A stretch of 32,000 nt of DNA from the NCBI RefSeq assembly GCF_016127575.1, contig NZ_CP066018.1, positions 2,850,001 through 2,882,000 on the forward strand, given 5' to 3'. Positions 5,336 through 26,648 of this stretch are shown here, piece after piece. Below the pieces are notes generated by a model. The model was not told the origin of the DNA. It did no database searches and worked only from the letters and a program-made list of their open reading frames with translations. How positions within the stretch are numbered: position 1 is the stretch's first letter; every line of letters begins with the position of its first letter. The translations under genes were made by a program, and so were the position numbers. The stretch is from Cupriavidus necator (lineage in GTDB: Bacteria; Pseudomonadota; Gammaproteobacteria; Burkholderiales; Burkholderiaceae).

Positions 5336-5961
5336 CCAGCGACAGGCCAGGTGCGCACGCGCAGCACGGTATGGTCGCGCGGGCGCAGCGTCAATTCCAG
5401 TGCGGTCGGCACGCCCCGCCTCGTGATCGGCGCGACAAAGCGTGCCATTTCCGCTGCTGCAGCGAGGCGCGTGCCGCAGCGCATCGCCAGCCGCAGGATA
5501 TGCAGCGGCACGAACCGCTCCGGCTCCTGCATGTCCGCCAGCGCGGCCAGCGTGAAATGCAGTGGCTGCCGAGCCAGTGCGATGAAGCGCCCGCGCAGCC
5601 GCGCCAGCGTCGCCGCGGGCGCCGCCAGTCCTTCGCCCTCGGCGCCGCTGCGCGTCATGCCGCGCGCACGCGGCTGCCACAGCGTGCCGGCAACCAGCAG
5701 CGATGCGCGCCCCGCGCCAGCTTCATCCACGCATGCATCCAGCGCCACGACATGGCCCGTCAGGTCATAGGTGGAAGCCACCGAGGCAAAGCTGCGGTGG
5801 TAGCCGATGATGCAATCCATGTCTTCGTCATAGACCGGCAGCGCATCACGCGGCACGCGCGCCGGACGCATCTCGAACCAGCCGGCACTGACCGGGTTGC
5901 GGCCGGTCCAGGGCAGGGCGAGTTCTGTTTCGGTCGCGGTGGGGAGGCAGGGGGACGGCAA
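5332..5961 (-). CDS. hypothetical protein (conserved-looking, no domain recognised)
   Basis: 209-aa ORF with high GC3 in this frame. It is convergent with the hydrolase gene and overlaps it by 4 nt. No motif was recognised by eye. Confidence 0.5.
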   Translation of the reverse strand: MPSPCLPTATETELALPWTGRNPVSAGWFEMRPARVPRDALPVYDEDMDCIIGYHRSFASVASTYDLTGHVVALDACVDEAGAGRASLLVAGTLWQPRARGMTRSGAEGEGLAAPAATLARLRGRFIALARQPLHFTLAALADMQEPERFVPLHILRLAMRCGTRLAAAAEMARFVAPITRRGVPTALELTLRPRDHTVLRVRTWPVAG

Positions 5962-7687: not shown

Positions 7688-7733
7688 TCTGGTGGTGGTA
7701 CAGGGATTGAACCTGTGACCCCTGCCGTGTGAA
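7688..7733 (-). repeat. island-distal att repeat: displaced 3' half of tRNA-Val (anticodon loop through CCA plus 2 nt)
   Basis: tctggtggtggtacagggattgaacctgtgacccctgccgtgtgaa matches 26572-26618 except for one missing g (tggtggg vs tggtgg). Confidence 0.9.
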
Positions 7734-8234: not shown

Positions 8235-9104
8235 TCACCCGGCTCTTGCCGTGACCTGGGTGTCTTGTTCATTACGACACAGTGTCGCCGCAAACACGCT
8301 AGAAACACTGGAAAGGGCGGCGGCCAGAACGTCGAGAAACGCAATATACTTTCGAACGACTTCGGTATCCGGCCATACGATCGAGGTGGACGGATGTGCG
8401 ATCGAGTTTCTATCGTCCATTAGCGCTGTCAATTTTTGCTTCGCAAGCGATTCAGCATTTGTGGGATCTTGCGTCATAAAGTAGGCTTGAATCGAGGCCT
8501 GTTGTCCTAATTTCTTCCATATTTCCTTCGCGCCGATACGGTCATAAAGATCCGTAAGGGTGTCAGGCTTCATATTTGTTTCAGTAATCGAAAGGCACTG
8601 ATAATTGATATTATCGATCGTGGCTTCGGCTGATAGATTGGCTGCCAAGTTTTTGGTGAAAGAAGCAACTGCGCCGTCGCCATGTTGATACTTCCTTGGT
8701 GATTGCATCACGATCGCAGTGAACACGACTAAGCTATCCTGCATCTTCTTTGGCAACGCCCTAAATGATGATGCCCGCTGAGCCAATCGTTGGCAAAGGT
8801 CCTCAAACGAAGTACGTGTGTACTCTTCGAATCGTCCTGCAATGTAGAGGATCATCGTACCGCTAACGACAGGCAACCCCTGGTGTGAATTCCGGGTGCA
8901 TTGATGTAAGGTATTTGCTTGGCGGAGATACTTGCGGATTTCTGTGCTTGCACTCGACTTTCGCTCCCTGTCGATCGTTGATGATCGGACATATCTCTCC
9001 GATAACTCAGAGGTCGCCGAGAATTTCTTGATTTCGTCGAGTAAGTCCAATTGCCGGGAAATGGTCACAAGGTCTCGCTGAAACTCGGAAAGGATAAGGT
9101 CCAT
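8235..9104 (-). CDS. HEPN-domain protein (RiboL-PSP / MAE_28990-like), putative RNase effector
   Basis: The Rx4H motif DDRNSIAH is encoded at 8394-8411 near the C-terminus of a helical protein. ATG 9104 has GAGG 6 nt upstream and lies 7 nt after the DUF262 stop. GC is low. Confidence 0.7.
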   Translation of the reverse strand: MDLILSEFQRDLVTISRQLDLLDEIKKFSATSELSERYVRSSTIDRERKSSASTEIRKYLRQANTLHQCTRNSHQGLPVVSGTMILYIAGRFEEYTRTSFEDLCQRLAQRASSFRALPKKMQDSLVVFTAIVMQSPRKYQHGDGAVASFTKNLAANLSAEATIDNINYQCLSITETNMKPDTLTDLYDRIGAKEIWKKLGQQASIQAYFMTQDPTNAESLAKQKLTALMDDRNSIAHPSTSIVWPDTEVVRKYIAFLDVLAAALSSVSSVFAATLCRNEQDTQVTARAG

Positions 9105-9111
9105 GCGCGCC

Positions 9112-10323
9112 TCAGGCCGAAAGGATCGTTCTTGCAAGCGCCACGCGAGCCTTGATTGCTTCTACAGTGTTCCCGCGGCCCACGAGAATATCGTAATCCT
9201 CCTTTGTGCTGAGGGCTTTGGTAAGCCTGTCCTTTACAGTGAGAGGCTCTGCGAACTGCGGTGGCGGTGAGGAATCGGACAGGGTACTAGCTGCGACCAT
9301 AAGGGCGTCGTACAAGGGGCGACTGGGCCGCTTGGTCCCTGGAAGAACGATGAAATCGGGGCCAATCAGTCGGATGAGAGTGTTGATACTTGAGGTGAAT
9401 AGTGCCCCAAGTTTGTCGGCATCATCATTGGAAATATTCCTGTATTTCCTCATTGTCCGATCGAGGATGTGACGTAGCGAACCCTTTGTCTCTCCCGAGA
9501 TAGTCTCACGAATCGCAAAAAATCGTAAAACGAGTTCGCAATCCATCATCGATTGATAGAGAATATTCTTTGTGAGTTCGGGAGCGGGTTCTTTTTCCTC
9601 ATTTTCTGTTCTGCGAGGGATGCCCCATACATTGGCAAAGCTGTCTTCTCGAGACAGGCGCTTGATCATCGCATTGAAGGTGCCTGGAAATGCTGCATTT
9701 CTTAATTCTTGAGGATTTAATTTTACTCCTCCGGTATTAAGTCGTCTGAAGAGCACCATTCTAATATCAAAATCGCCATCGCCACGAGCAGTTTCTGCAA
9801 GTAATACCACGGCACCTATTGTGCGTCGTAGTAGTCCGCGTCTAACTGCCTCGGGGAGATCACGAAACCGCTTCGAGTTGATTTCTGGCCAATATTCCAG
9901 GCCGGTTAGCGCAAAATCATTGTCTAGAAAATCGGTGATTGTCTCTAGTCGCTGCCGGCCATCCATCACTTCGTATTGATTATAGTTTGCCTCGAACAGG
10001 AAGAGTGATGGGATGGGTACATTCAAAAGAATGGATTCAATTAGTAGCGACTTCTTTTTTCGGTCCCAGCGGGCACGCCGTTGATATCCGGGAGCCATGT
10101 TTATGTAGTTTGATTCGCGTAGGGATGCCTGGAGTTGATGCAGGGTGAAATCCATTGTGGAACGGACGACTCTCAGTTGAGTTTCCGCGTATTTCCTTTC
10201 AATGTCGTCCGAGGTACTTGACACTGAAACATCGGTTTGATCGTCCTCGGACTCATACCATTCGTCAACTTGGTCTTCGTTGATGTCGAGGGGCTGGTCC
10301 AATGAAGCTGATATGGCGGTCAT
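9112..10323 (-). CDS. DUF262 (ParB/Srx-like) domain protein
   Basis: Carries the YQRRARW...LIESILLNVPIPSLFLF...EVMDGRQRLETI signature; DGRQR is encoded at 9949-9963. The N-terminus is acidic. No DUF1524/HNH tail was seen. Start ATG 10323 (MTAISASL) was chosen; the 107 upstream codons of the track ORF look non-coding. One sampled line in this gene is 38% GC. Confidence 0.8.
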   Translation of the reverse strand: MTAISASLDQPLDINEDQVDEWYESEDDQTDVSVSSTSDDIERKYAETQLRVVRSTMDFTLHQLQASLRESNYINMAPGYQRRARWDRKKKSLLIESILLNVPIPSLFLFEANYNQYEVMDGRQRLETITDFLDNDFALTGLEYWPEINSKRFRDLPEAVRRGLLRRTIGAVVLLAETARGDGDFDIRMVLFRRLNTGGVKLNPQELRNAAFPGTFNAMIKRLSREDSFANVWGIPRRTENEEKEPAPELTKNILYQSMMDCELVLRFFAIRETISGETKGSLRHILDRTMRKYRNISNDDADKLGALFTSSINTLIRLIGPDFIVLPGTKRPSRPLYDALMVAASTLSDSSPPPQFAEPLTVKDRLTKALSTKEDYDILVGRGNTVEAIKARVALARTILSA

Positions 10324-10766
10324 AAATAACCCTTTGTTTTGGGAGTGGTGCGTGTTCAGCAGTCTATTACAAGAGTGCTGTGCATGGACAAGCCAGATCC
10401 TGCGGGGCGCAAGCAAATATTTGGCTCCGCCGCGATCCGTGATCGGTCCGGGCGAGCCGTATTGGGGCTGTTTAACCGTGGCTAGTAGCGCCGGGGGCTC
10501 CGAGGGGGCGGCCATATCTCGGCTCGATCCGTTGCGGCCAGCTACTACGACAATAGGCGGCCCAGGACCTGCACCGCCGATCTCCAGGTATTGGTCAACA
10601 GGCCATTGAATTGTTGGCTCACCTTGGCCGGCTGCCAACAGCACCGGTGAGCGATGGCCGGTCGCTCGCTGGTGCAGGCGCGGCTGGGGTGGCGCGGCTG
10701 GGGTGGCGTTTGCGAAAAGATGAGCACTGCCGATAGTCAGGCAAACGCCTGCCCATTAGCCAATAC

Positions 10767-11280: not shown

Positions 11281-11486
11281 CCAGCCGATTCGAGTCACGC
11301 GCGCACGATTGGTCACTTCGGAAAGGGTGGCATGTCCCAAGGAGGGGCACTGCGGCGGAAAATCGGGGGGAAGAGAGGAGGAATCTACGCCCTGTGTGGC
11401 GGCCCATTGACATGGGCACGCCACACAAGTAGATCAGACGGCCTAGAGGCCAGCCTATGTGACTGGAGCTACTCCTAGTCGGCTGG
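11281..11486 (+). ncRNA. candidate structured ncRNA upstream of the RT (retron msr/msd-like), speculative
   Basis: Terminal complementarity ccagccga (11281-88) / tcggctgg (11479-86), plus gagt (11292-95) / actc (11471-74). These enclose a 15-bp hairpin at 11393-11427 (tgtgtggcggcccat-tgac-atgggc-a-cgccacaca). No convincing ORF is present. Confidence 0.25.
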
Positions 11487-11519
11487 CATTTTGCTAGTAT
11501 ATACGAGGCGATAGGTCGC

Positions 11520-12512
11520 GTGCATCGATGGGTAGCCCAGAAGGTAATTGTGAATAAAAAGCCACTTGAGACGCTTTTCGAGGCTATGTACCACAGCAAG
11601 CGTTCGTTCGACGATTTCGCGCGTGGTCCAGTGGCCCAGAAGTACGTCCGCCACCGCTTCTGCAAGCAGGGCAAGACGAGGGAGGTTCTCAGTCCCGACG
11701 ACAAGCTGCGTGCCTACCACGAGTTCCTGAGGCTCTTCCTGCTCGACTTTCTACCGCAGAATGAGGAAGTGGTTTTCTCGTATCGAAAAGGCGTGAGCGC
11801 CTACGACGCGGTGAGCAGGCATGCGCAAAGCAAGTTTTTCTTCGTTTGCGACATTGCCGATTTCTTCCCCAGCCTCAAACGCCATCGCATCCGACAAACC
11901 ATTCTTTCTGGGAAAGACTCATCTCCCGTCGCCGATTTAGATCAGTGGTTGGAGCGTATCCTTGACCTGGTGAGCGTCGACGATTGCTTGCCCATGGGCT
12001 TTTCCACGTCGCCGACAATAAGCAATGCCGCGCTATTGCCGTTCGACAATGCGGTACAGTGGTATTGCGCCTCGAGGGGGTTGATCTACACGCGTTACTC
12101 CGACGACATGGTGGTATCCGCCAAGGAGTTCGCCTCGCTAGATGGCATCGAGGAAACACTCGGGGCATTCTTCGTCGAATACATGGACGGCGACCTGGCC
12201 CTGCATCCTGGAAAATCCAAGCTGCTTCGAACTGGCAGCAAGATCAGGCTCCTGGGGATGGTACTGTTGCCCAATGGGACCATTTCGGTGGACGCGAGTA
12301 TCAAATCTGAGATCGAGGTACTAATCCACTTCTATATCAAGGACAGGGCGAAATTTGCGGATCGCGCAGATGGAGATGCGCAGAAGGTCGAGGCACGGTT
12401 GGCTGGCCTTCTGAATTACGCGAACACCGTGGACCAATCCTATCTGCAGAAGCTGCGCAAGAAGTTCGGCGCGGCTGTGGTGGATCTATTCCTGCACCGC
12501 TCCTTTGGCTAG
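11520..12512 (+). CDS. reverse transcriptase, retron/Abi-like (about 320-330 aa)
   Basis: RT motifs occur in order: KQGKTREVLSP, SYRKGVSAYDAVSRHA, FVCDIADFFPSL, LPMGFSTSPTISNAAL, YTRYSDDMVV (YSDD at 12096-12107), HPGKSKLL, IRLLGMVLLPNG. The track start is GTG 11520. An alternative is GTG 11550, preceded by AGAAGG. Confidence 0.9.
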   Translation: MHRWVAQKVIVNKKPLETLFEAMYHSKRSFDDFARGPVAQKYVRHRFCKQGKTREVLSPDDKLRAYHEFLRLFLLDFLPQNEEVVFSYRKGVSAYDAVSRHAQSKFFFVCDIADFFPSLKRHRIRQTILSGKDSSPVADLDQWLERILDLVSVDDCLPMGFSTSPTISNAALLPFDNAVQWYCASRGLIYTRYSDDMVVSAKEFASLDGIEETLGAFFVEYMDGDLALHPGKSKLLRTGSKIRLLGMVLLPNGTISVDASIKSEIEVLIHFYIKDRAKFADRADGDAQKVEARLAGLLNYANTVDQSYLQKLRKKFGAAVVDLFLHRSFG

Positions 12513-12515
12513 GGT

Positions 12516-13844
12516 ATGCACTTCTCAGTCGAGCTGGCGGAAATCCGCCCAATAAAAGCGCTCAGCTTCGAGATCGATCTTGCGCGAAACCAACTGCTCT
12601 GCATTGTGGGTAAGAATGGCTCGGGGAAAACTACGCTAGCCAAGGCGATTCTCAACTTCACGTTGGCCGACACCTTTACCCGCACATCATCGGATGGCAT
12701 TTTTCATCATGGCAGCAAGATTTGCTACCGTTTTGGCGCCCAAGAATTCCTGTTCTGGTATGACGACAACCTGCGCATGCTCAACTGTAAGGCGCCTATT
12801 CCAGAAGCGTTGAAGGCGCAGATATCGGTTGAGCTGCCGATGCCCCATGGGCATCGGTTCAATTTCTTCCGAGCGCTTAGCGAGTCCGATCACGAGATCC
12901 GGCGGGCGACCATCTTGGGGGATTACCGAAAACCCGAGGAGCTCATAGAGTTCTTGTCGCGCATCTATGGCGAACGACGATTCGACGATCTGATCGAGGT
13001 ACGATTGCGTACAGGATCGTGCTGCTGCATCACCCTTCCGGGCGGCCGCTATCTGCGTGAGGATTATTTCAGCTCTGGCGAATACTTCCTTATTAATCTT
13101 TATCGCAGGGTACGTAAGGGCCAACGGCTCGTCGTAATCGACGAGATCGACATTTCACTGGACGCCGCAGCCCAGGCTCGCCTCACCGCGGAGCTTCGGA
13201 CACTCTGCACTGAATACCACGTGAATATCGTCTTCACGAGCCATTCTCTAGCAATGATGCAGACGCTGCAGAGCAACGAACTGCTTTATATGGAACGGAA
13301 CGCCGAAGGTGCAACGCTCGTACCGGTATCTTTCAGCTATGTGAAGAGCTTGATGTTCGGGTTCACAGGCCGTGACAGATATATTCTCACCGAGGATGAG
13401 GTGCTCAAGGAGTTTCTGTCGTTTGTAATCCGTCACTACTGCCCACCTACCTTTTATAGCTATTATTTAATTGAAGTTGGTGGGGCGGGTCAGGTCGTCG
13501 ATCTCATGGCGCGTAATGATCGCGATGGATTCCTTGGCCCGACGGAAGACGTTATTTCCATCCTGGACGGCGACCAAAAACACGCCAAGCACGCCCAAGG
13601 GCCGAAGACCTACTGCATGCCGCTAGAGAGTGTCGAGAAGGCCTTCTGGGAAGAACATCAATGCCCAGATTTCCAGCCGCGCATTTCGGCGGAGCAGCAA
13701 GGCCCCAAGGCCCTATACAAGTACGTAACTCGCAACAAGATTTTCTCGCAGGAAGAGATCTTCAAGCTCCTTTGCGATCGCCATCATGAGGTCATTCAGG
13801 AGTTTGCCAGCACCTTGCAAGCCTTTCTTTGCCGGCCCACATGA
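12516..13844 (+). CDS. ABC-type ATPase fused to a TOPRIM-like (OLD / DUF4435-like) domain
   Basis: Walker A GKNGSGKT (12609-12632), signature-like FSSGE, Walker B LVVIDEIDISLD, and H-loop FTSHS. The C-terminal half has YILTEDEV...IEVGGAGQVV...ILDGDQ, resembling the TOPRIM Glu / GG / DxD pattern. ATG lies 3 nt after the RT stop. Confidence 0.8.
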   Translation: MHFSVELAEIRPIKALSFEIDLARNQLLCIVGKNGSGKTTLAKAILNFTLADTFTRTSSDGIFHHGSKICYRFGAQEFLFWYDDNLRMLNCKAPIPEALKAQISVELPMPHGHRFNFFRALSESDHEIRRATILGDYRKPEELIEFLSRIYGERRFDDLIEVRLRTGSCCCITLPGGRYLREDYFSSGEYFLINLYRRVRKGQRLVVIDEIDISLDAAAQARLTAELRTLCTEYHVNIVFTSHSLAMMQTLQSNELLYMERNAEGATLVPVSFSYVKSLMFGFTGRDRYILTEDEVLKEFLSFVIRHYCPPTFYSYYLIEVGGAGQVVDLMARNDRDGFLGPTEDVISILDGDQKHAKHAQGPKTYCMPLESVEKAFWEEHQCPDFQPRISAEQQGPKALYKYVTRNKIFSQEEIFKLLCDRHHEVIQEFASTLQAFLCRPT

Positions 13845-13886: not shown

Positions 13887-14753
13887 TCAGTTGTCCGCAG
13901 TTGACTTTCTGGACGCTTGGTCGATATTTTCCTGAAAGCTCTCGAAGAATAGGTCAATCTCCTCATCCGTTGCCGGCCATATGTCAAAAGAAGGCTGGGG
14001 CAAGCCGGGCAGCCGCTTGTCGTCGGGTAGCCACGGCTGATCTAATTGGCCGAAGGAGAAACGTATTCGGAGGCGATTCAATGCGCCGCCGTTTGGGCGC
14101 ACGGGATCGAATGGCCGTATCCAGTCTGGCAGGCCGTCATAGTCTACAGCCGTGACTAGGCGGCCTTCCTGCTGGGCTTGATCTCTAAGTGTTCGCTCTT
14201 GCTCTTCGATTTCCGCTCGGTCTTCAAACACCTCGCATCCGAGCTCTTGAATCTTCGCAGTCCACTCCTGATACGTAACCGCGGCTTCAGACGCGCAGCG
14301 CGGAGGTCGCGGTCTCCCACCTTTCGAACCACCAGGCGGTAAAGGCAGCTTGCCATGGGCCAGATTCATCAATCCGCGTCGAAATAGCTTCAGTGCAGCT
14401 CGCTCGCTGTCGAGGCGGGCACCAAGGGCATCGGCGGAAGCAAGGTCCACGAGGCCTAAAGGCAGCAGCTCGTCTTCTGTAACGTAGCCAAGCTCGTGGG
14501 CAAGGGTAGCAACATCAAACAGCTTGGCTATGGACAAGGCCTGGCCCGACTTGCTGTAGGTCCCCTCCATGTGCCTGTAGCGCAGCCATTCCTGGCCAGT
14601 CTCCTGGTCAAACATGTCCCGCAACCCCAACCCGAACTTGGCCTCCAGTTGTGCTGGAGATAGCCCGGAACGTTTCTCGATCAGGCAAAGCAGGGCAACT
14701 GTGGCGCCCTTCATTCGCTGCTGACCGTACTTACCGTCTCGATGTCGCCCCAT
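13887..14753 (-). CDS. hypothetical protein, possible N-terminal HTH
   Basis: The internal ATG 14753 was chosen because the longer track ORF would overlap the divergent AlpA-like gene. LLCLIEKRSGLSPAQLEAKFGL resembles an HTH. It is divergent from the AlpA-like gene and convergent with the ATPase gene. Confidence 0.45.
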   Translation of the reverse strand: MGRHRDGKYGQQRMKGATVALLCLIEKRSGLSPAQLEAKFGLGLRDMFDQETGQEWLRYRHMEGTYSKSGQALSIAKLFDVATLAHELGYVTEDELLPLGLVDLASADALGARLDSERAALKLFRRGLMNLAHGKLPLPPGGSKGGRPRPPRCASEAAVTYQEWTAKIQELGCEVFEDRAEIEEQERTLRDQAQQEGRLVTAVDYDGLPDWIRPFDPVRPNGGALNRLRIRFSFGQLDQPWLPDDKRLPGLPQPSFDIWPATDEEIDLFFESFQENIDQASRKSTADN

Positions 14754-14837
14754 TCGAAACCTCGTGGAATTCCCTTTTGCTGGCAGATGTGACTCAAAGC
14801 ATCCTATCAGCACTTGGATAGCGAGGAAACATGACAG

Positions 14838-15230
14838 ATGAAGACCGCCGACAAATCGAGAGTGGATTTCCGCGTGGCGTTCGCAAACATGGATAGATGC
14901 GCGCTTTTGTCGCCCGAAGAACTTGCCGAATTGCTTGGCAAGAGCCGAAACGCTATCTACCACATGCTTCGGCGAGACGAGGATTCATTTCCTCAACCGG
15001 TCCTTCGCCAGAACCGATGCATTCGCTGGCGTGCCGGTGATGTCCGAGATTGGATAGACAGCCTGTCGAGCGCGAAGCCGCGTGAGATAGAGACTGCAAG
15101 GAGGCGGGGTCGGCCTCGCCAGGGCGATTTGCAGAGGTCCCCTTCTGATAGCGCACCTCTTGCTAACGATCATTCGACGGCGCTCGGACAAGCGCGTGCA
15201 CGCAAACTTGTGCGTTTTACCTTGGGGTGA
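14838..15230 (+). CDS. AlpA/MerR-type HTH DNA-binding protein (excisionase/regulator-like)
   Basis: LLSPEELAELLGKSRNAIYHMLRRDEDSFPQPVLRQNRCIRWRAGDVRDWI fits the AlpA-family pattern. GAGGAA lies upstream of ATG 14838. An alternative start is ATG 14889. Confidence 0.7.
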   Translation: MKTADKSRVDFRVAFANMDRCALLSPEELAELLGKSRNAIYHMLRRDEDSFPQPVLRQNRCIRWRAGDVRDWIDSLSSAKPREIETARRRGRPRQGDLQRSPSDSAPLANDHSTALGQARARKLVRFTLG

Positions 15231-17422: not shown

Positions 17423-18898
17423 ATGGCATCCCCTCACGTATCCTTTAAGCGTGGCAAAGTTGGCAACGGTGCCGCGCACGCCGCCTACGTGAGGGGTGAG
17501 GGAAAGTATGCCGACCGCGACGATGTGCGGGCAGTGGTCGATGGCAACCTGCCTGCCTGGGCGTGCGGCGACGCATATAAGTTCTTCGCGGCGGCGGACG
17601 CCAATGAGCGCAAGAACGGGCGCGCATATCTCGAGGTCGAGGCCGCCATCCCGCGCGAAGCCGCGGATCCGATTGCCTGGGCGCGCGAGTTCACCCAATC
17701 GCTGCTGGGTGACCGCTTTGCCTACCGGCTCGCCGTGCATGACCGGCAGGCCGGCGACGGCGGGCGGAATGTCCACCTGCACCTGATGTTTTCGGACCGC
17801 CCGACCGATGGCGAGCACTTCGACGCGAAGCGTTTTTTCAAACGGAACGGCTCCATGAAGGACCGCAGCTGGAACAAGCGTGACATGGTGCTCGAGGTGC
17901 GGTGGCTATTTGCCAAGCACGTTCGTGAAGTTGTGCCTGGCTGGGAGCCGCCCGCGCCGGCGAAGCCGGAACCGAAGATTGGTCCCGCCTTGCCCAAGGC
18001 CGGCACGCTGTACCACCAGGTCCGCACGGCGCGCCTGGCGGAGGTGGAGCAGATCCGCATTGAGCGTCGGCAGGAGGCCGAGCGCGAGAAGATCCGAGAC
18101 GACCTCGCCGAAGCCACCAAGGATCTGTGCATCCCGTGGGAAGTGGATTTGCCCCAGCTCGAACGTCGGCTCAATGCCCTGCTGACGATGCCGCTGCAGC
18201 TTGGCCAGCAGGCCGAGCTGCAGGAGCTGCGCCGCAAGGCTGAGCTGGAGCGTCGTCGCAGGGAGGCGCGGGCGCGCCAGAAGGCCCGGGAATTGGAAAA
18301 TGCGGCCCAGCACGGCTGCGTCAGGGACCTGCTGAAGATCGCGCTGTACGCCCGCTATTGCGAGCTGGAGGGGGATTCGGCGGGTGGAAAGCGACTACGT
18401 GCTGAAGTCCAGCGTGAGATGCGCAACACCCCGGCGACTCGGAAGCGCGCGGACTACACGCAGGCGCTGGTCGTTCGCCTGGCAGCAGAGGAATTGCTGC
18501 GCGACGGCTTGATCGGCGAGGGCGTGGCTCACGCCCTTGGTGTCAACGCGAAGCTGGCAAAGTCTCTGGGCCCCAACGGGCTGGCCAAGGAAACCAGCGA
18601 GCACCTTATGGCGTCCATCAAGGCAGCGGAAGTCTCCAATGCTGCCGTGGGCAAGCAGGTCAGGGAGGTGAATCTGGCGCTGAACGCAGCTGCCGCGACA
18701 ATCATGCAGACCATGCCTGGCGACTACAGTGCTGCTGCCAATGCGGCCGGAATCGTTGCGAGTGTGGCAACACAGTTCCGATCGTTCTCTGCCGTCCCGG
18801 CATCAAAGGCTGACGGGCAGCCGGTGGTGAAGGCCTCTGCTGCCGACAAAGGCGCTGGAGCGGCCACCGTGCCGAAACTGCGTGCGTCCAAGCCGTGA
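17423..18898 (+). CDS. mobA: MOBQ-family relaxase (MobA/MobL-like) with coiled-coil C-terminal region
   Basis: The N-terminus AAYVRGEGKYADRDD parallels RSF1010 MobA ADYIQREGKYA (catalytic Tyr context). The histidine triad region is LAVHDRQAGDGGRNVHLHLMFSDR. No primase domain is apparent. Confidence 0.9.
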   Translation: MASPHVSFKRGKVGNGAAHAAYVRGEGKYADRDDVRAVVDGNLPAWACGDAYKFFAAADANERKNGRAYLEVEAAIPREAADPIAWAREFTQSLLGDRFAYRLAVHDRQAGDGGRNVHLHLMFSDRPTDGEHFDAKRFFKRNGSMKDRSWNKRDMVLEVRWLFAKHVREVVPGWEPPAPAKPEPKIGPALPKAGTLYHQVRTARLAEVEQIRIERRQEAEREKIRDDLAEATKDLCIPWEVDLPQLERRLNALLTMPLQLGQQAELQELRRKAELERRRREARARQKARELENAAQHGCVRDLLKIALYARYCELEGDSAGGKRLRAEVQREMRNTPATRKRADYTQALVVRLAAEELLRDGLIGEGVAHALGVNAKLAKSLGPNGLAKETSEHLMASIKAAEVSNAAVGKQVREVNLALNAAAATIMQTMPGDYSAAANAAGIVASVATQFRSFSAVPASKADGQPVVKASAADKGAGAATVPKLRASKP

Positions 18899-25373: not shown

Positions 25374-26420
25374 CTAGCCGAGCTTTAATGCGAGATCCTT
25401 GGCTCGGGGGTGGTAGTAACGTCGAAGCATTTGAAGTGTCTTGTGGCCCGTGACCGCCGACAGTTCCAGGACGTTGTCCAAGCGTTCGGCTATTCGCGAC
25501 GTTCCCTCATGCCGGAGGTCGTGAAACCGAAAGTTCTCGATGCCAGCCCGTTCGCAGGCGCGCGTAAAGGCCTTTTTAACGGCGTCAGCAGATGTTGGAA
25601 ACACTCTGTCCGAGGCCGATGTCGCGAGCTCTGCCAGCGGGGCGAGGGTGCTCACAGCCTTGGTTGAAAGGGGGACATCCCTCGACTCACCATTTTTCGA
25701 GTCGTGCAAGCGTACAAAGCGATCTTCAAGGAATACGTCCGACCACCGCAGGCTTAGTAGCTCGCCGCGGCGCATGGCTGTTTCCAATGCGAGGATCGTC
25801 AACGGCAAGATGCTCGGGTTCCGCGAACCGCCTTTGTCATAGTGGCCACGCCCATTGCGTGGGCTGGCAGATAGTTCGGCAAACAGACGGGCCTCTTCTG
25901 CAGCCCCGAGCCTGCGGGTGCGACCGCGGCTTTCGCGGGGCCGCCTGATCGTCGAGACTGGGTTGATAGCCAGGTGTATGTCCCATTCCTTGTTGGCGAC
26001 ATTCAAGACATGGCTGATGAGGGTTAGCTCCCGATTTACTGTTGATCCGGAAACCGGGCGTCGCTCGCCGTCGCCCTTGAGGCGACGGTCTCGGTATGCC
26101 GCCAGGACCTTGCCAGTGAGGGCGGCAATCTTGTAGTGGGCAATAGGGTCAGAACGTAGCTTGCGAATTCGAAGGACTTCTTGCTCACCACCTTTCTTGT
26201 GGGGCGAGATCTCTTCGCTGTACCGGAGGAGAAGGTCTCCAAGAGTGTTCCGCTCAGCCTCCCGGCGGTCGACGAAGGACCCTCGATCCATTTCGACCTC
26301 CACCTGGCGAGCCCAGCTCTCAGCGTCAGCTTTTGTATCGAAGGTGCGCGCTTGGGGTGGGTAACCGCGCTTACGGATCGCGACGCGCCAATAGTCGCCT
26401 CGTTTCCAGATCGATGCCAT
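25374..26420 (-). CDS. int: tyrosine site-specific integrase
   Basis: ETAMRRGELLSL (Arg I), FRFHDLRHEGTS (HxxR), VTGHKT, and LRRYYH (catalytic Tyr). The N-terminal SAM-like arm is MASIWKRGDYWRV. It is the first gene inside the island next to the tRNA. Confidence 0.9.
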   Translation of the reverse strand: MASIWKRGDYWRVAIRKRGYPPQARTFDTKADAESWARQVEVEMDRGSFVDRREAERNTLGDLLLRYSEEISPHKKGGEQEVLRIRKLRSDPIAHYKIAALTGKVLAAYRDRRLKGDGERRPVSGSTVNRELTLISHVLNVANKEWDIHLAINPVSTIRRPRESRGRTRRLGAAEEARLFAELSASPRNGRGHYDKGGSRNPSILPLTILALETAMRRGELLSLRWSDVFLEDRFVRLHDSKNGESRDVPLSTKAVSTLAPLAELATSASDRVFPTSADAVKKAFTRACERAGIENFRFHDLRHEGTSRIAERLDNVLELSAVTGHKTLQMLRRYYHPRAKDLALKLG

Positions 26421-26516
26421 TCCTGCTCCAGACAAGTGATTGGTCGTGTCCGGGCCGATTGTCTGACTGCGCCACTTTTGCGCCAAAAGGGCATTCCGCG
26501 AGGTTTTGCGGCAATG

Positions 26517-26571: not shown

Positions 26572-26618
26572 TCTGGTGGGTGGTACAGGGATTGAACCTG
26601 TGACCCCTGCCGTGTGAA
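26572..26618 (-). repeat. island-proximal att repeat (within the functional tRNA-Val)
   Basis: The 47 nt tctggtgggtggtacagggattgaacctgtgacccctgccgtgtgaa pair with 7688-7733. Confidence 0.9.
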
Positions 26619-26648
26619 GGCAGTGCTCTACCGCTGAGCTAACCACCC
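26574..26648 (-). tRNA. tRNA-Val (anticodon CAC), 75 nt with encoded CCA
   Basis: The minus strand GGGTGGTTAGCTCAGCGGTAGAGCACTGCCTTCACACGGCAGGGGTCACAGGTTCAATCCCTGTACCACCCACCA folds as a cloverleaf by hand. The stems are acceptor GGGTGGT/ACCACCC, D GCTC/GAGC, anticodon CTGCC/GGCAG with loop TTCACAC, and T ACAGG/CCTGT with loop TTCAATC. Confidence 0.95.

Follow-up and report, generated by a model that had tools for sequence, protein, structure and literature searches.

Positions 11520 to 13844 of a 32,000-nucleotide stretch of the Cupriavidus necator genome (contig NZ_CP066018.1, positions 2,850,001 to 2,882,000; hereafter the window) carry a reverse transcriptase (RT) gene followed directly by a gene for an ABC-type ATPase with a TOPRIM-like C-terminal domain. 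Which system do these two genes form, and is it complete? The initial annotation regarded them as a retron-like defence module with a non-canonical RT, either a divergent retron subtype or an RT-effector pairing not yet characterised. We consider it probable that the locus is a complete retron of type I-B1, consisting of a noncoding RNA (ncRNA), an RT of clade 1 and a Class 3B OLD-family ATPase-TOPRIM nuclease, that it is carried as cargo by an island at a tRNA-Val gene, and that it acts by a mechanism resembling those of Retron-Eco8 and the type I-A retrons. The pairing is not new, as it belongs to a subtype that has been defined bioinformatically. The one unusual feature of the locus is the ncRNA, which is encoded on the strand opposite to the RT and has a promoter of its own.

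Reverse transcriptase and OLD-family effector

The two open reading frames (ORFs) of the initial annotation are confirmed at 11520-12512 and 12516-13844, both on the plus strand. The RT stop codon TAG ends at 12512 and the effector ATG starts at 12516, and this gap of 3 nt suggests translational coupling between the two genes. In the ORF listing the RT starts with GTG at 11520, which gives 330 residues. A second GTG at 11550, with an AGAAGG Shine-Dalgarno sequence 6 nt upstream, gives 320 residues, the length annotated at NCBI for a C. necator protein that is 100% identical, and is the likely start of the gene (11550..12512, plus strand).

The RT matches Pfam RVT_1 and, with an E-value of 3.7e-118, positions 2-314 of the 316 positions of the PADLOC RT_I-B profile PDLC02937. 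Its runner-up relatives among the PADLOC and NCBIfam models are the II-A and I-A RTs, not Eco8. Against the NCBIfam St85-family model it scores 162 bits, under the cut-off of 235, so it is related to that family without being a member. In a search of PDB, solved RTs of the I-A and II-A type are found with E-values from 4e-17 to 1e-13, and the Eco8 RT aligns with residues 70-205 only (E 1.3e-11).

All motif strings quoted in the initial annotation, YSDD included, occur in the translations. In the numbering of the 330-residue ORF, YSDD is found at 193-196, the histidine of region X at 101 and LLG at 244-246; IRLLGMVLLPNG is also present. Region X reads AVSRH and not literally NAxxH, and region Y reads LLG and not literally VTG. 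It was correctly noted that LLG takes the position of VTG, since 'rllGmvl' is aligned on 'hvtGvtl' of a solved retron RT, but it is a trait of the family, with K-LLG-MVLLPNG invariant in an alignment of 32 RTs (54-87% identity) and the glycine retained. Both H101 and G246 are invariant in the clade alignment, and G and H are the most conserved residues of the retron VTG and NAxxH motifs (Mestre 2020, PMC7736814).

The second gene (12516..13844, plus strand) encodes the OLD-family effector of Class 3B, with 442 residues. It aligns over its whole length, positions 1-442 of 443, to the PADLOC ATPase-Toprim_I-B profile PDLC02914 (E 7.6e-186); a second I-B effector profile, PDLC02915, matches the Walker A region only (E 1.2e-6). 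The impression that this protein is unusually compact is not borne out, as all of the 120 listed homologues have between 431 and 481 residues. With both proteins matching dedicated I-B profiles end to end, the descriptions of the RT as non-canonical and of the pairing as uncharacterised can be abandoned, and so can the idea of a divergent subtype: profile classification places the RT inside a defined retron clade with its own ncRNA family.

The effector translation holds GKNGSGKT, FSSGE, LVVIDEIDISLD, FTSHS, ILTEDEV, GGAGQVV and ILDGDQ. The N-terminal ABC ATPase has its Walker A at G32-T39, the signature at S186-E189, Walker B at D209-E210 and H243. In the C-terminal TOPRIM-like domain, the motifs are E293-D294-x-x-L297 and D351-G-D353. 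In 35 homologues, E293, D294, L297, D351, G352 and D353 are invariant, as are Walker A, the SSGE signature, Walker B and H243. Judged from sequence, the catalytic motifs are therefore intact in both the RT and the effector.

The AlphaFold2 model of the effector, built from 35 sequences, has a pLDDT of 88. Its best fold match in PDB is the OLD nuclease 6p74 of Thermus scotoductus, aligned over the whole length with an E-value of 1.7e-12, followed by the ATPases of Gabija GajA and retron I-A PtuA. In the model, E293 comes directly after the strand 288-292 and D351-D353 directly after the strand 346-350. This fits the TOPRIM arrangement reportedly described by Aravind et al. in 1998, in which E is expected after strand 1 and DxD after strand 3. 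The same OLD template was reported by Mestre et al. (PMC7736814).

Two subtypes of type I-B have been distinguished. I-B1 combines RT clade 1 with effector cluster 22_2, with EDxxL as motif IV and DxD as motif V, while I-B2 combines RT clade 3 with cluster 159_1 and has EGxxE as motif IV (Mestre 2020, NAR 48:12632, PMC7736814, Table 1). In a later classification, I-B1 corresponds to 'Class 3B' OLD proteins, encoded downstream of the RT, and I-B2 to 'Class 3A', encoded upstream of it (Front Microbiol 2023, PMC10568477). The window effector has EDxxL and lies downstream of the RT, as in Class 3B and not as in I-B2. Each of the 22 full-length genomic loci has RT and OLD side by side, and so do more than 100 loci altogether; OLD was found in 113 loci, with flanking genes that are not conserved. 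The association of RT, OLD and RNA is obligate. Thus the original assignment to a retron-type RT with an OLD-like ATPase/TOPRIM effector of type I-B was right, except that Retron-Eco8, named there as an example of the same architecture, belongs to I-B2 (PMC10568477) and is an analogue.

The label I-B1 has also been used for something else. A 2021 FEMS review (PMC8632793) lists Retron-Sen2 (St85) as 'type I-B1', whereas Table 1 of Mestre (PMC7736814) has II-A1. The effector of Retron-Sen2, RcaT (NDT-like), is not an OLD protein. This use of the label is probably an error, by which anyone looking for characterised I-B1 systems could be misled.

The noncoding RNA and its strand

In retron RNAs, a short conserved hairpin and, after it, a long one whose top is hypervariable correspond to the msr/msd layout, and an 'IB1' ncRNA family has been listed (Mestre 2020, PMC7736814). 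Rfam contains no retron msr family that matches the window, either at the gathering threshold or at E-values up to 10. An alignment-based contig scan gave 22 genomic loci with related RTs (35-67% identity), while a single-sequence scan gave no match. Common to the loci is an element of about 110 nt that is located immediately upstream of the RT. Read in the RNA sense, it consists of an AUG, a variable stem of 6-7 bp enclosing the conserved inner hairpin GACUAGGAG-NAU-CUCCRGUC, the conserved linker CCUCUAGGCCGUCUGA and a second hairpin. Hairpin 2 has a 5-bp base (UCUAC/GUAGA), a 3-nt bulge and a long stem, the top of which is different in every locus.

In the window, the element is a msr/msd-like RNA of 106 nt at 11384..11489 on the minus strand, with a transcription start predicted at 11489. 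Hairpin 1 (11449-11487) has a variable outer stem and the conserved inner hairpin GACUAGGAG-UAG-CUCCAGUC (11461-11480). It is followed by the conserved linker CUCUAGGCCGUCUGA (11434-11448) and by hairpin 2 (11384-11433), with its 5-bp base UCUAC/GUAGA, 3-nt bulge and long stem with a variable top, which is presumed to be the msd template. After hairpin 2, most loci have a pyrimidine-rich tract, irrespective of the orientation of the element; in the window it is found at 11360-11383 on the minus strand and reads UUCCUCCUCUCUUCCCCCC.

A covariance model of the element gives a single full-length match in nearly every locus. There is one match in the window, at 11372-11492 on the minus strand, and its 116.6 bits are the top score among all loci. 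In an alignment of 101 sequences, 93.3% of the cells are paired, compared with 78.6% after shuffling and 29-45% with slid partners, and compensatory changes occur in 22 of the 27 pairs. Because the sequences were aligned by fitting them to the covariance model, the pairing counts favour the structure; RNAalifold on a MAFFT-based alignment independently recovers the same helices.

The strand of the ncRNA is fixed by four mutually independent arguments: the asymmetry between G.U and A.C pairs, the folding energy, the promoter and 85 loci in which the element is co-oriented with the RT. In the element orientation, hairpin 1 has 12 G.U cells and 2 A.C cells. One of its pairs occurs as UA (11), UG (8) and CG (2); on the opposite strand it becomes C.A, and RNAalifold drops it. 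Across 99 distinct sequences, the same pair is UA in 79, UG in 13 and CG in 7. The element orientation is the more stable one in 18/21 loci, by 3.0 kcal/mol on average (Wilcoxon p 0.004).

A sigma-70-like promoter stands in front of the ncRNA. Its -10 element TATACT is located at 11496..11501 and its -35 element TGCACG at 11519..11524, both on the minus strand, the latter overlapping the alternative RT start at GTG 11520 on the opposite strand. The -35 and -10 elements are separated by 17 nt, and the -10 element is followed by 6 nt and the start. The same layout precedes the AUG on the element strand across the loci, with a -35 element, 17-18 nt, TAnnnT and 6 nt. Matches to at least 8 of the 12 sigma-70 positions, with A2 and T6, are found at the fixed position in 16/21 loci, compared with 0.9% of random control positions. 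On the plus strand, the extended -10-like TGcTAGTAT at 11492-11500 overlaps the minus-strand -10 element with a 1-nt offset and may serve the RT-OLD operon as a divergent partner promoter. Their overlap suggests that the two form a symmetric bidirectional promoter, from which the ncRNA would be transcribed one way and RT-OLD the other.

Inverted ncRNA genes, priming site and alternative readings

The element lies opposite to the RT strand in the window and in 17 of the 22 genomic loci (the near-duplicates L011 and L022 included). Four distant loci, three from Campylobacterota and one from Catenovulum, have it in the same orientation as the RT. A scan of metagenome and viral contigs using only the RNA core gave 136 loci, of which 104 have an RT match. 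Among these 104, the element is upstream on the RT strand in 85 and divergent in 19, and no other arrangement occurs. The 32 RTs with a divergent ncRNA, that of the window among them, make up one exclusive clade in a neighbour-joining tree built from 101 unique RTs. This exclusive clade points to a single inversion event, and that the arrangement persisted as the RTs diverged to about 45% identity is an argument that it works.

An ncRNA upstream on the same strand, in one transcript with the RT, is seen in the 85 loci but not in the window and the other 31 members of its clade. With the ncRNA made as a separate, divergent transcript, the RT would have to act on it in trans. We tentatively suggest that there is an exclusive I-B1 clade with an inverted ncRNA under its own promoter, whose template is captured in trans and whose RNA is seemingly permuted relative to the textbook form, although we would not yet favour this full combination over its negation. 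No report of a retron ncRNA opposite to its RT was found in the literature, in a comparison that did not take in the published 'IB1' consensus (supplementary figure, Mestre 2020), and the inversion may already be known to the authors of that study. If it is unreported, pipelines restricted to upstream ncRNAs on the RT strand would get this clade wrong. An inverted ncRNA would also explain failed detection or expression of the ncRNA in members of the clade. If true, the clade would represent a natural two-promoter retron with template and RT on separate transcripts, as in retron editors.

The RNA scan also gave some observations beyond the retron loci. Sixteen viral or proviral contigs from IMG/VR (L146-L161) hold the I-B1 RNA core, so that phage-like elements carry this retron type too. 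One locus (L115) has two copies of the element, at 2125-2205 and 5550-5630. In three loci the element is complete and no RT or OLD gene is present within several kb: L139:4875-4989 (94.8 bits), L142:1320-1446 (80.2 bits) and L093:3391-3504 (40.2 bits). The L139 element adjoins an enoyl-CoA hydratase gene, and the L142 element lies at the start of a 1595-residue ORF without any Pfam or PADLOC family; the neighbours of these two elements include no defence or RT families. All three could be orphan ncRNAs, remnants, or partners of something unrecognised.

Several results weigh against reading the window locus as a complete I-B1 retron. No RT promoter could be identified with confidence. In the literature that could be searched, no I-B1 retron turned up that had been characterised by experiment, and production of multicopy single-stranded DNA (msDNA), trigger and nuclease activity are extrapolated. 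The TOPRIM domain, for which the initial annotation had proposed a structure prediction, is well supported by family membership and motifs, and agrees with the full-length OLD fold match, but it is weakly supported by an independent fold search. When the C-terminal 173 residues are modelled alone (pLDDT 91), the top match is the OLD TOPRIM domain of Burkholderia pseudomallei, 6nk8, which is weak (E 0.069, probability 0.66, TM 0.36), and PARIS AriB is found lower among the weak matches. No Pfam TOPRIM family matches this domain, and in PDB, sequence as well as profile searches with the effector get no further than ATPase domains. The Eco8 effector is absent from the PDB sequence search results and has no detectable sequence similarity to the I-B1 effector.

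To these must be added the results on the priming site. No long a1/a2 repeat is present, as the energies of 5'/3' duplexes equal those of shuffled and cross-locus controls. One candidate a2/a1 pairing, of 11281-88 with 11479-86, was rejected because 11479-86 pairs locally in all loci and the long-range duplex is at chance. Neither is there an invariant unpaired G in the 101 ncRNA sequences. A 'canonical priming' fold, CUCUA-G* / G-UAGA, is the minimum free energy structure of the window and of L002, and it is rejected as a conserved structure by covariation. It has an invariant C in its 5' column, whereas the partner column is A in 49 and G in 46 sequences and covaries with another column, and its G is present in 40/101 sequences. 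The sole terminal stem is instead the 5-bp base of hairpin 2, which covaries. Most loci have a G after the 5' strand of this stem, in the form UUUAC-G in canonical loci and UCUAC-UU-G in the inverted clade (11426 in the window). If G 11426 primes, which we propose with low confidence, the conserved hairpin 1 would sit 5' of a1, that is, in a permuted textbook msr.

These observations leave some room for the reading that the conserved RNA is regulatory, for example an antisense RNA of the RT leader or a protein-binding decoy, in a clade without branched msDNA. The missing a1/a2 repeats and invariant priming G, the conserved hairpin located 5' of the only terminal stem, unlike a textbook msr, and the complete elements without an RT in L139, L142 and L093 are all in line with it. 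However, the combination of a short conserved hairpin with a long one of hypervariable top is that of msr/msd according to Mestre et al., with 'IB1' among the listed ncRNA families; in 85 loci the element is placed directly upstream of the RT, as is canonical, and most loci do have a G after the 5' strand of the base stem. We regard a regulatory RNA as unlikely, while of the alternatives it is the one that survives best.

A little less likely still is that the island carries the locus along as a passive, inactive remnant, a reading in line with the neighbouring GC-rich stretch and its frame-shifted ORF fragments. Against this, both ORFs are intact with every catalytic residue present, the ncRNA outscores that of all other loci with its 116.6 bits, and the identical locus is found in several assemblies of C. 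necator.

It is very unlikely that the ncRNA is on the plus strand and co-transcribed with the RT, the inversion being an artefact because the reverse complement of a hairpin also folds. Retrons are described as a single msr-msd-RT transcript, and the reverse complement of this element does form most of the helices. However, this reading would have to account for 12 G.U against 2 A.C cells in hairpin 1 and a UA/UG/CG pair that turns into C.A, for the greater stability of the element orientation in 18/21 loci (p=0.004), for a promoter at fixed distance on the element strand only, and for the 85 loci in which an element of the same orientation is upstream on the RT strand.

Finally, a defence RT that is not a retron (DRT, UG or Abi), or a PARIS- or Gabija-like OLD system that merely lies beside an RT, can practically be dismissed, as the weak matches to AriA, GajA and PtuA profiles (E 1e-9 to 1e-12) and to the NCBIfam models Drt2 and Drt3a (1e-7 to 1e-9, far under the curated cut-offs) are surpassed by the I-B profiles by more than 100 orders of magnitude, and RT and OLD are adjacent in every locus examined.

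Genomic island, proposed mechanism and known systems

The I-B1 retron lies within an island of 18.9 kb. A perfect direct repeat of 40 bp, at 7694-7733 and 26579-26618, is the 3' part, about half, of the tRNA-Val(CAC) gene (26574-26648, minus strand), and the two copies are the att sites that bound the integrated island. A tyrosine integrase (25374-26486, minus strand), an AlpA-like helix-turn-helix gene (14838-15230, plus strand) and a MobA/MobL relaxase (17423-18898, plus strand) are encoded on it, and the island is therefore probably an integrative mobilisable element. The retron is very probably an anti-phage module on this mobile island. The identical locus was found only in assemblies of C. 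necator.

The retron module has a GC content of 0.538 (RT 0.549, OLD 0.530), ranging from 0.465 to 0.60 in windows of 200 nt, while the flanks are at 0.66-0.68; the initial annotation thus correctly placed it below the host, but its range of 45-52% does not hold. The lowest GC content of the island, 0.505, belongs to a pair of overlapping minus-strand genes, a GmrSD_N-domain protein (9112-10644; PADLOC NsnA, E 1.5e-60) and a HEPN RiboL-PSP protein (8235-9137). This pair (8235-10644) is likely a second defence module beside the retron, and it is not conserved beside other I-B1 retrons.

Between the GmrSD-like gene and the ncRNA there is a GC-rich stretch (0.645) of about 600 bp, from 10650 to about 11270, in which the only ORFs are frame-shifted minus-strand fragments without a Pfam family. 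The plasmid collection gave no match to this stretch. It may be a decayed gene or a recombination scar, and it is the sole support for the earlier remark that the module sits at a breakpoint. On the other side, an ORF of 358 residues (13887-14963, minus strand) is convergent with the OLD gene. It has no Pfam, NCBIfam or PADLOC family, and it is not part of the retron, as it is present only in the C. necator copies of the island.

By analogy with Eco8 and the I-A retrons, a mechanism can be proposed. With the long variable hairpin 2 of the ncRNA as template, the RT would make a short msDNA of about 40 nt. The complex of RT, RNA and msDNA would bind the OLD nuclease and hold it inactive. On binding or modification of the msDNA by a phage factor, the ATP-dependent nuclease would be freed and would degrade phage and host DNA, leading to abortive infection. 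For Retron-Eco8 the trigger is a phage SSB (PMC13402713; bioRxiv 10.64898/2025.12.04.692459). The analogy with Eco8 is functional and not one of homology, because both profile and fold searches place the effector ATPase closer to I-A PtuA than to the Eco8 effector.

As an I-B1 retron, the locus makes no conceptual addition, as tools of the PADLOC type already recognise such systems. Its value is practical, since it represents an apparently uncharacterised subtype in the genetically tractable and well-studied C. necator, and the coordinates of ncRNA, promoter and catalytic residues make it a ready test case.

Among known systems, I-B1 or Class 3B as defined bioinformatically (PMC7736814, PMC10568477) is the closest. 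The window shares with it the clade-1-type RT, the effector with EDxxL and DxD downstream of the RT and the adjacent ncRNA, and differs in that the ncRNA gene is inverted and has its own promoter, in the window as well as in its RT clade. The I-A retrons Ec78/Eco7 and Ec83/Eco4 consist of an RT, the ATPase PtuA and the HNH protein PtuB. Their RTs are of the same clade and match with E-values of about 1e-13, and the ATPase domain of the window effector is structurally close to retron PtuA; the ATPases of I-A and I-B1 were both placed in cluster 22 (Mestre 2020, PMC7736814). However, the nuclease of the window is a fused C-terminal TOPRIM domain, whereas in I-A it is a separate HNH protein, and the window has no PtuB gene.

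Retron-Eco8 (I-B2, Class 3A), for which cryo-EM work exists, has the same set of components: an RT, an ncRNA/msDNA and an OLD-family ATPase-TOPRIM nuclease. It is the best available mechanistic model, with an autoinhibited assembly, a phage protein that binds the msDNA, release of the nuclease and DNA degradation. It differs in its RT, which is of clade 3 instead of clade 1, in the effector cluster, in EGxxE in place of EDxxL and in the effector gene upstream of the RT.

Outside the retrons, the best full-length fold matches of the effector (E 1.7e-12 and 2.2e-10) have the same order of ATPase and then TOPRIM. Compared with them, the window effector is shorter (442 versus 512-626 residues), is always paired with an RT and has no GajB helicase. 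PARIS is a distant relative that also combines an ABC ATPase with a TOPRIM-like nuclease. As the identity of the locus it is excluded by the presence of an RT and by the E-values, which are about 1e-11 for AriA profiles compared with 7.6e-186 for the I-B profile. In PARIS, AriA and AriB (DUF4435/TOPRIM) are separate genes without an RT, while in the window ATPase and nuclease form a fused protein beside one.

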